3,819 bases of DNA from a virus (lineage: Duplodnaviria; Heunggongvirae; Uroviricota; Caudoviricetes), in IMG/VR virus record IMGVR_UViG_2778261707_000024. One strand, given 5' to 3'. A model generated the notes under the pieces. That model was not told where the DNA came from. It saw nothing but the letters and a program-made list of their open reading frames with translations, and did not search any database. How positions within the stretch are numbered: the first letter of the stretch is position 1; each line of letters starts with the position of its first letter. Of the stretch, positions 2,902 to 3,612 are shown in pieces. Both the position numbers and the translations under genes were made by a program.

Positions 2902-2930
2902 ACTATAGGAAATGCCTAATTGCTTGTCAA
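2902..2930 (-). promoter_or_regulatory. Predicted leftward early promoter (PL-like)
   Basis: On the minus strand, -35 TTGACA (complement of 2925-2930) and -10 TATAGT (complement of 2902-2907) are separated by a 17-bp spacer. The predicted start is near 2895, giving an untranslated leader of about 95 nt before the ATG at 2801. Confidence 0.55.
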
Positions 2931-2943
2931 TAGGCTACGCCTA
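2906..2943. promoter_or_regulatory. OL-like operator pair with TAGGC-N3-GCCTA palindromes
   Basis: OLa is TAGGA-AAT-GCCTA (2906-2918, one mismatch) and overlaps the PL -10 and spacer. OLb is TAGGC-TAC-GCCTA (2931-2943, perfect) and abuts the -35. Their centres are 25 bp apart. They match the three sites in the racR-ydaS intergenic region. Confidence 0.55.
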
Positions 2944-3002
2944 ATGATTTGGGTGCGACCTAATAGGTGATGGTTTGTGGGAGAGGTAGTAGGAGTTAAC
3001 TA

Positions 3003-3024
3003 ACGGGAACTAGGAATTTCCCGT
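3003..3024 (-). terminator. Candidate hairpin terminator downstream of the repressor gene
   Basis: ACGGGAA (3003-3009) pairs with TTCCCGT (3018-3024) around an 8-nt loop, 15 nt past the racR-like stop codon. The trailing sequence is only weakly U-rich. Confidence 0.3.
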
Positions 3025-3038
3025 CGGACCATATAAGT

Positions 3039-3515
3039 TTAAGTTCCTGTCTTGGTGATGTTCTGGCTTTTCCGTTTTGATTCTTGATTTTTCAGATAGT
3101 TAGCTACCTTCATTTCCATTGCGGCAATGTAGGCACGAACGTCATGATCAACCCAACTAGGCTCCGTAGCATTTCCAGATAAGAGGAAAGCCACAATTGC
3201 TCTTTTTTCATCAGAGGCGGCTTGATAAAGGCTGTTTATGTCTAAAAGTTCACTTTTTGTATCTGAAGTGGATGGGGTTGGTATGGGGTATTCGTTAAGC
3301 CCCCAATGCTCTGGACCAACCACATCAGAAAAGAAACGCCATAGTTCTGGAAGTTTGTCTTTACTTATCGAACCTTTCTTAATCCAGTCATGGATTGATG
3401 GTGGTTGGACTTTGAAATGACGTGCGATTTCCGCCTTTGATTTGACGGCTCCTGATGCAATTTTTTTGTTAATGGCCTGCTCTATCGCTCGGCCTAAGTC
3501 TTTACCACTAAGCAT
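3039..3515 (-). CDS. racR: Prophage repressor, RacR-like HTH (XRE/Cro-C1 type) DNA-binding protein
   Basis: 158-codon ORF with ATG at 3513-3515 (complement) and AGGAGA 10 nt upstream; stop TAA at 3039-3041. The N-terminal helix-turn-helix is SKAEIARHFKVQPPSIHDWIKKG. No S24 (LexA-like) peptidase motifs are present at the C-terminus. The length, position and divergent Cro-like partner match my recollection of Rac prophage RacR. Confidence 0.88.
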   Translation of the reverse strand: MLSGKDLGRAIEQAINKKIASGAVKSKAEIARHFKVQPPSIHDWIKKGSISKDKLPELWRFFSDVVGPEHWGLNEYPIPTPSTSDTKSELLDINSLYQAASDEKRAIVAFLLSGNATEPSWVDHDVRAYIAAMEMKVANYLKNQESKRKSQNITKTGT

Positions 3516-3544
3516 TGCTTAATAGTCTCCTATGCGCATCGCAT

Positions 3545-3608
3545 TAGGCAATGCCTACTCTCGAAGTGTTAGGCATAGCCTATTGACAATTGCATTAGGC
3601 TAAGCCTA
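3545..3608. promoter_or_regulatory. Tripartite OR-like operator with three TAGGC-N3-GCCTA palindromes
   Basis: O1 is TAGGC-AAT-GCCTA (3545-3557), O2 is TAGGC-ATA-GCCTA (3570-3582) and O3 is TAGGC-TAA-GCCTA (3596-3608, extending to the 17-bp ATTAGGCTAAGCCTAAT at 3594-3610). Centre-to-centre spacing is 25 and 26 bp. O3 overlaps the PR spacer and -10, and O2 abuts the -35. Confidence 0.7.
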
Positions 3609-3612
3609 ATAT
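3583..3612 (+). promoter_or_regulatory. Predicted rightward early promoter (PR-like) for the Cro-like gene
   Basis: -35 TTGACA (3583-3588) and -10 TAATAT (3607-3612) are separated by an 18-bp spacer. GGAG at 3627-3630 precedes the ATG at 3640. Confidence 0.6.

Follow-up and report, generated by a model that had tools for sequence, protein, structure and literature searches.

The 3,819-nucleotide stretch of DNA analysed here, from the Caudoviricetes record IMGVR_UViG_2778261707_000024 (hereafter the window), very likely carries a RacR-type lambdoid immunity region with two operator/promoter modules, in which the repressor RacR would silence both a rightward (PR) and a leftward (PL) early promoter, plausibly with an octamer loop between the two. 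Over bases 1–3780 the window matches, at 100% identity, the left end of prophage Sp6 in Escherichia coli O157:H7 Sakai and many other O157 genomes; Sp6 is annotated as a 'lambda-like phage', and the window represents the left arm of a defective lambdoid prophage. The repressor gene, racR (3039–3515, minus strand), is flanked by a left operator cluster (OL) past its 3' end and a right operator cluster (OR) in the racR-ydaS intergenic region. The right cluster is already known; what is new, going by the literature searched, is limited to the recognition of a left operator and promoter in RacR-type immunity regions and of their wide conservation.

Scanning the window for the palindrome TAGGC-N3-GCCTA with at most one mismatch, and with 200 shuffles as a control, returned five matches where 0.07 are expected, and none of the 200 shuffles gave five. 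They are the same five palindromes that the first-pass annotation of this DNA had pointed out: OL1 (TAGGAAATGCCTA, 2906–2918, one mismatch) and OL2 (TAGGCTACGCCTA, 2931–2943), about 100 bp beyond the racR stop, and OR3 (TAGGCAATGCCTA, 3545–3557), OR2 (TAGGCATAGCCTA, 3570–3582) and OR1 (TAGGCTAAGCCTA, 3596–3608, inside the 17-bp perfect palindrome ATTAGGCTAAGCCTAAT), the last four all being perfect. A sixth, degenerate operator, absent from that annotation, emerges at two mismatches: OR4 (TAAGCATTGCTTA, 3509–3521), whose mismatches are symmetric and which is centred on the racR ATG, corresponding to the published 'O3' or fourth inverted repeat (PMC9638921).

A sigma-70-like promoter scan of positions 2400–3819 found two sites only, and both are embedded in these operators. 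PR runs on the plus strand, with TTGACA at 3583–3588, an 18-nt spacer and TAATAT at 3607–3612 (10 of 12 consensus matches); PL runs on the minus strand, with TTGACA at 2930–2925, a 17-nt spacer and TATAGT at 2907–2902 (11 of 12 matches), and is predicted to start leftward at about 2895. The two modules are mirror images of each other: one operator (OR2, OL2) abuts the -35, and the other (OR1, OL1) fills the spacer and 2 nt of the -10. The geometry described for outward-facing TTGACA promoters in the first-pass annotation was thus recovered by the scan, as was the inverted recurrence of a sequence block reported there, which we find as two mirrored arms of 21 nt, 2924–2944 (including OL2) and 3569–3589, that are 95% complementary.

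The right module agrees with what has been established for the Rac prophage of E. coli K-12. There, the 123-bp racR-ydaS region was found to hold three GCCTAA/TTAGGC repeats, and RacR to form three complexes in electrophoretic mobility shift assays, to be enriched in chromatin immunoprecipitation and to repress ydaS (Krishnamurthi et al. 2017, PMC5700373). Subsequent work mapped PydaS (TTGACA/TAATAT), with a -35 hexamer identical to that of PR and a -10 whose mutation abolished its activity, together with three racR promoters, the strongest of which yields a leaderless transcript, and DNase I footprints of RacR defined operators O1-O3, (T/A)TAGGC-n3-GCCTA(T/A), with O3 over the ATG (Wisniewska et al. 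2022, PMC9638921). A 2023 paper from the same laboratory counts four inverted repeats and reports a 151-kDa RacR octamer by size-exclusion chromatography (PMC11014345). The earlier remark that this design had not been dissected for the family is thus outdated as far as the right cluster goes, for which binding assays, footprints and a mapped PydaS exist (PMC5700373, PMC9638921); left operators have been identified in the related CP-933P prophage (PMC8630535). By sequence inspection and homology to K-12 PracR3, a promoter mapped by primer extension and -10 mutagenesis (PMC9638921), we further place a putative racR maintenance promoter at 3522–3551 on the minus strand, with a -35 TTGCCT inside OR3 (3551–3546) and a -10 GAGACT/GACTAT (3529–3522), from which the racR transcript would start at or near the ATG and be leaderless.

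For the left cluster, the evidence comes from a comparison of 23 genomic loci encoding RacR relatives and two phage records, in which the left pair was sought in about 3.2 kb of fetched downstream DNA per locus. In K-12 Rac, the pair lies at L002 9631–9643 and 9656–9668 (MG1655 1419630–1419642 and 1419655–1419667), again about 100 bp beyond the racR stop, and flanks TTGACA-17-TATAGT. More generally, a module of the form ATTAGGC-N3-GCCTA-TTGACA-N5-ATTAGGC-N3-GCCTAATAT is found 3' of the repressor gene in 16 of the 23 distinct loci, from Gamma- and Betaproteobacteria, directed away from that gene and 0.56–3.2 kb from the repressor start. Its carriers include Escherichia; the first site lies at +556 to +601 in Mixta, Morganella, Proteus and Erwinia, at +1879 in Klebsiella phage KpF5, and at +1177 to +3151 in Achromobacter, Burkholderia, Pigmentiphaga, Herbaspirillum and an unclassified Pseudomonadota metagenome bin. 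The -35 hexamer is TTGACA in 15 of these 16 loci and TTGACT in Proteus (L010), and the -10 in other genera is TAATAT, TAGTAT or TACTAT in the matching place. Almost every locus has the right cluster, its sites being centred at 0, -35 and -60 relative to the repressor ATG. Four sites, at 0, -36, -61 and -87, occur in E. coli-type prophages only; in Mixta, Morganella, Proteus, Erwinia and KpF5, whose RacR orthologues share the C-terminal domain, there are three, and the OL pair is kept. The dual OL/OR architecture around RacR proposed in the first-pass annotation is strengthened by this comparison across genomes.

At closer range, 79 of 80 E. coli-type viral contigs carry the left pair, and the remaining one has too little downstream DNA to tell; across 21 E. 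coli-type alleles the half-sites and the TTGACA and TATAGT of PL are invariant, and the N3 spacers and flanks vary. Between Sp6 and K-12, 2 of 60 half-site positions differ, against 24 of the 117 other positions of both operator regions (Fisher p = 0.0015). It is hard to reconcile any of this with the left pair being a chance match or a decaying, functionless relic. Sp6 is indeed defective, and its early-left region is short here, as expected of a relic; but only 0.07 sites are expected in the entire window, dinucleotide shuffling of the downstream sequences of 14 pair-bearing loci gave 0 pairs in 1400 trials, and conservation over two proteobacterial classes and in all 21 alleles already contradicts a reading that we regard as scarcely credible. 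The comparison makes a convincing case for a left cluster that is real.

RacR very likely represses the early-left promoter. The left pair could instead be mainly a target of YdaS, the Cro-like protein encoded on the other side of OR, or a decoy that buffers free repressor. In favour of this, residues 18–46 of RacR and 9–37 of YdaS align at 41% identity (pairwise E 5e-6), so that the helix motif shared between them in the first-pass annotation is real; that motif, PPS(V/I)..W(I)K, is however partly a generic scaffold, as outgroup Cro proteins show. The Cro partners in all RacR-type loci carry xPP(S/T)VNQW, and the YdaS-like Cro proteins of HK639, phi1026b and Aaphi23, whose repressors and operators are unrelated, retain just S..(A/V)..W; with these three outgroups, the PP(S/T)(V/I)(N/H) residues appear specific to the RacR immunity group. 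Competition between RacR and YdaS for the operators has already been stated in the K-12 literature, and in CP-933P the left promoter is repressed by both PaaR2 and YdaS (PMC8630535). On the other hand, a decoy would not need to be embedded in a promoter with 11 of 12 consensus matches and invariant hexamers, and in lysogens the leftward genes are silent with RacR and without detectable YdaS (PMC5700373) and rise when RacR falls (PMC6765115). We consider a YdaS target or decoy very improbable.

Under control by RacR at both promoters, the circuit would work as follows. RacR dimers would recognise (A/T)TTAGGC-N3-GCCTAA(T/A). Those at OR1 and OR2 would occlude PR at its -35, spacer and -10, turning off the cro-like ydaS and the cII-like ydaT, and those at OR3 and OR4 would cover the -35 and the start point of the racR promoter, which suggests negative autoregulation because the racR -35 lies inside OR3 and the predicted start lies at the ATG, inside OR4. 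OL2 and OL1 would likewise occlude PL and turn off the early-left operon, consisting in this prophage of a ydaF-like gene, an exonuclease, xis and int, and in K-12 Rac of ydaG, ydaF, kilR, racC, recET, xis and int. Since RacR forms octamers, the OL1–OL2 pair and an OR pair would probably be bound by one octamer, with about 0.6 kb including racR looped out and both promoters held more tightly. We infer RacR binding at OL, PL activity and OL-OR looping from this arrangement.

Such a left promoter under RacR would account for a series of observations in K-12. In a 2019 transcriptome with lowered racR expression, ydaG, ydaF, ydaE and racC rose about 40-fold and kilR, ydaC and ralA more than 70-fold (PMC6765115); xisR and intR rise about 100-fold when RacR is lowered (PMC11014345); and the Rac recombination genes undergo zygotic induction (PMC5917428). 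Were PL controlled by RacR, derepression of the leftward arm, of xis and of int, as well as zygotic induction of Rac, would therefore be accounted for. Rac work so far has treated RacR only as the repressor of ydaS-ydaT and the silencing of kilR as a matter of Rho, and the RacR regulon, ydaFG included, has been called uncharacterised (PMC11014345). The sites 3' of racR are not described in the literature searched (on RacR, YdaT, the Jobling letter, the Rho terminator 'trac' and OxyS/kilR), where the OxyS/kilR paper names no promoter.

Whether the two clusters are joined in a loop is a separate matter. Looping is plausible: there are paired sites at both promoters, with an equal within-pair spacing of 25–26 bp, an octameric repressor and a separation of about 0.6 kb. 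One RacR octamer bridging OL1–OL2 and an OR pair, instead of sitting on four adjacent repeats, would explain why both early operons are so tightly silenced and why losing RacR is lethal, and we put this forward as a tentative explanation. It could equally well be imagined that the two modules work independently, RacR (and YdaS) occluding PL and PR separately and the octamer occupying the four adjacent sites between racR and ydaS of E. coli-type prophages, as the K-12 authors read it (PMC11014345); promoter occlusion by two flanking operators requires no distal partner, and there is no third OL site. This, too, is a possibility to be taken seriously, although not one on which we would rely. The agreement of four repeats with an octamer does not hold generally, because the RacR orthologues outside E. 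coli have three adjacent sites only and yet keep the OL pair, and paired sites with identical spacing at both promoters are the arrangement used by a lambda-type octamer bridge. The cluster separations, about 591–639 bp, share no common helical phase, which is uninformative for loops of such length.

Several points weigh against a two-module, looped circuit on the lambda pattern. Seven of the 23 loci, all distant, lack an OL pair within the roughly 3.2 kb fetched, of which three also have degenerate right-cluster sites, and the literature searched gave neither RacR binding nor a mapped start site at the left cluster. The silencing of kilR has been ascribed to Rho/NusG termination of read-through and not to an operator (PMC4150792, PMC5793797), the published octamer model uses the four racR-ydaS sites and requires no loop (PMC11014345), and YdaS reportedly does not repress racR (PMC9638921). 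Since no more than two OL sites are credible, a contact of the lambda OL3-OR3 kind would lack its left-hand partner. In lambda, OR2 is centred at about -42 and CI activates PRM; here the repressor is unlikely to activate the maintenance promoter, since the operators lie closer to the racR start (centres 0 and -36), so that the circuit is no copy of that of lambda.

The design itself is classical, textbook lambda, and has been demonstrated experimentally in the neighbouring CP-933P prophage family; no principle is changed by finding it here. Its value lies in what it would explain and allow. An operator-flanked, near-consensus PL would provide a direct cause for the 40- to 100-fold derepression of ydaG, ydaF, kilR, racC, xis and int, for recET zygotic induction and for excision upon RacR loss, and the left cluster offers a testable alternative to the model of an octamer on four repeats. 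If the loop is true, the family would moreover offer a set of natural domain swaps with which to compare oligomerisation domains for their ability to support looping: from Gamma- to Betaproteobacteria its members have the DNA-binding domain, the operators and the promoter cassettes in common but differ at the C-terminus, which is either an S24 autoprotease or the RacR domain, which is not cleavable.

The right operators show further features of their own. The middle one, TCAATAGGAATTGCCTAA (about -45 to -25 in loci L007-L027), hardly varies over two classes of Proteobacteria, even in its TAGGA mismatch and ATT spacer, and appears to carry the -35 of PR (TTGACA overlapping its edge) and, on the other strand, the -35 TTGCCT of the repressor promoter. 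OR4 is found at position 0 in 20 tabulated loci (L003-L027), with the repressor ATG in its 3-nt spacer (ATTAGGC-AAT-GCTTA), and the first two repressor residues, ML, are invariant in an alignment of 18 proteins; codon 2, CTT (Leu), dictates the conserved GCTTA mismatch in that half-site. The repressor coding sequence and the operator over its ATG thus appear to constrain each other from Gamma- to Betaproteobacteria. In the E. coli-type prophages Rac and Sp6, the racR-ydaS interval holds one more operator than in any other RacR-type locus examined; this extra site, OR3, found in E. coli-type prophages only, looks like the product of a 25–26 bp operator duplication.

On the left side, a third operator was considered at 2950–2962 (TGGGTGCGACCTA), 19 bp from OL2, and rejected: its three mismatches are no better than chance would give in the window, and although two mismatches are seen in many alleles, its region varies among them. 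The region upstream of OL2 is indeed variable in the wider set of E. coli-type alleles; within it, the block ACCTAATAGGTGATGG (2957–2972) is shared without change by Sp6, K-12 and E. ruysiae, between flanks that vary on both sides, and contains a pair of operator-like half-sites that face outward (ACCTA-A-TAGGT). Likewise, the sequence TTGATT-C-TTGATT at 3078–3090 was dismissed as a YdaT/CII-type box, as it is not conserved in K-12. A 13-nt perfect direct repeat, GGGTTGGTATGGG (read CCCATACCAACCC on the minus strand), occurs at 2886–2898, in the predicted PL leader just past the -10, and at 3275–3287, in the interior of racR within the stretch coding for a YPIPTP linker, and extends to about 20 nt with one indel; as RNA, both copies are C-rich and G-poor and resemble Rho-loading sites. 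racR is known to contain a mapped Rho-dependent terminator, 'trac' (PMC4150792). Just past the racR stop lies a hairpin (3003–3026, ACGGGAA ... TTCCCGT on the racR strand) without a T-run, with a K-12 counterpart of shorter stem and other bases (ACGGAA ... TTCCGT), which may be the 3'-end structure of the racR transcript.

The 158-residue window repressor scores 246.8 bits (cut-off 200; E 8.8e-74) against the RacR equivalog model NF049929 of NCBIfam and is 92% identical to an NCBI cluster named RacR. It carries no Pfam domain and no S24 peptidase, which places it outside the autocleavable Peptidase_S24 class, and when the RacR alignment was run as a profile against solved structures, only noise came back. 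In relatives (L013, L018, L023, L025, P0101, P0102 and P0114), an S24 peptidase is fused to a RacR-type DNA-binding domain. In intact Sp6, YdaS matches PF15943 (YdaS_toxin, 3.8e-30), as well as P22_Cro and HTH_3, and YdaT matches YdaT_toxin (PF06254, 2.6e-10).

The annotated gene series of Sp6 comprises an integrase, an excisionase, a small exonuclease, an opposite-strand open reading frame (ORF), ECs_1505, a 'phage repressor' (racR), ydaS and ydaT. ECs_1505 (2571–2801, minus strand; 76 residues), the first ORF downstream of PL, is YdaF-like (DUF1391) from residue 28; its first 26 codons (2724–2801) correspond in K-12 to an unannotated 18-codon ORF, MTAGFKFCSAAVSSATRR (L002 9458–9530), that terminates at the ydaG ribosome-binding site, and may represent a conserved leader mini-ORF in the predicted PL transcript. 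The first ORF past PL is thus DUF1391 and not N, and Rfam, searched with the complete window (PL leader included) for hits up to E = 1, gave no match; no search aimed at nut sites such as nutL was made. The opposite-strand ORF, ECs_1504 (1941–2456, plus strand; 171 residues), lies inside the early-left arm where Rac has sieB; its N-terminal half is coiled-coil, two CxxC pairs lie close to the C-terminus, and it matches no Pfam family significantly. On the right, the 5' part of ydaS (3640–3780, plus strand) is interrupted after about codon 47 by the last 39 bases of the window (3781–3819), which are the terminal repeat of an IS3-family insertion sequence. Because ydaS is cut by this repeat, either the source strain has no functional Cro-like gene in its Sp6-type prophage or the contig just stops at the repeat; the junction at 3781 is found in 0 of 5,426 complete E. 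coli genomes.

Compared with known systems, the region is closest to K-12 Rac, with which it shares an orthologous locus, the consensus (T/A)TAGGC-n3-GCCTA(T/A), the PydaS hexamers and a site over the racR ATG; OR3, perfect in the window, has one mismatch in K-12, and the N3 spacers differ.

With lambda it has in common divergent repressor and cro genes, operator pairs at two outward-facing early promoters with the repressor gene between the clusters, a leaderless repressor transcript and repressor octamers, the last two known for RacR from K-12. Unlike in lambda, the RacR sites are 13–17 bp long and of other sequence, there are two OL sites and not three, the maintenance promoter is overlapped by operators at its -35 and its start, and RacR is without an S24 autocleavage domain. 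The OL-OR loop of lambda spans about 2.4 kb, against about 0.6 kb for the one proposed here. Several relatives outside E. coli add to the likeness, with an intrinsic terminator directly before OL2 and genes between the repressor and OL, a slot in the position of rexAB and tImm in lambda. These cargo genes, which are co-directional with the repressor and occupy the gap where the left cluster is distant, encode ankyrin-repeat, LprI-domain and HSDR_N-domain proteins (L017 3490–5281, L025 1974–3932 and L027 4649–5803) and are candidates for lysogen-expressed defence or conversion functions.

CP-933P is a ydaS/ydaT-type lambdoid immunity region as well, in which the footprints of PaaR2 and YdaS overlap at OR, and a second promoter, PL933P, with OL operators lies past the repressor operon, its reporter being repressed by both regulators; its repressor also forms octamers, and looping was raised by the authors (PMC8630535). 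It differs from the RacR type in its repressor and operator sequence (GTTTAGTAA repeats), in a toxin-antitoxin pair co-transcribed with the repressor and in having three OL sites.

Lastly, the S24 repressors of Betaproteobacteria share with RacR an N-terminal region of 77 residues that is 73–78% identical in Achromobacter, Pigmentiphaga and Herbaspirillum (and 53–60% in two more distant metagenome loci), as well as the operators, their spacing and both promoter modules. In contrast to RacR, they carry a C-terminal S24 peptidase, and their loci have three OR sites and cluster separations, and hence potential loops, of 1.2–3.2 kb. These relatives would be ordinary CI/LexA-type repressors acting on the same operators and, given that peptidase, can presumably be induced by the SOS response through autocleavage.

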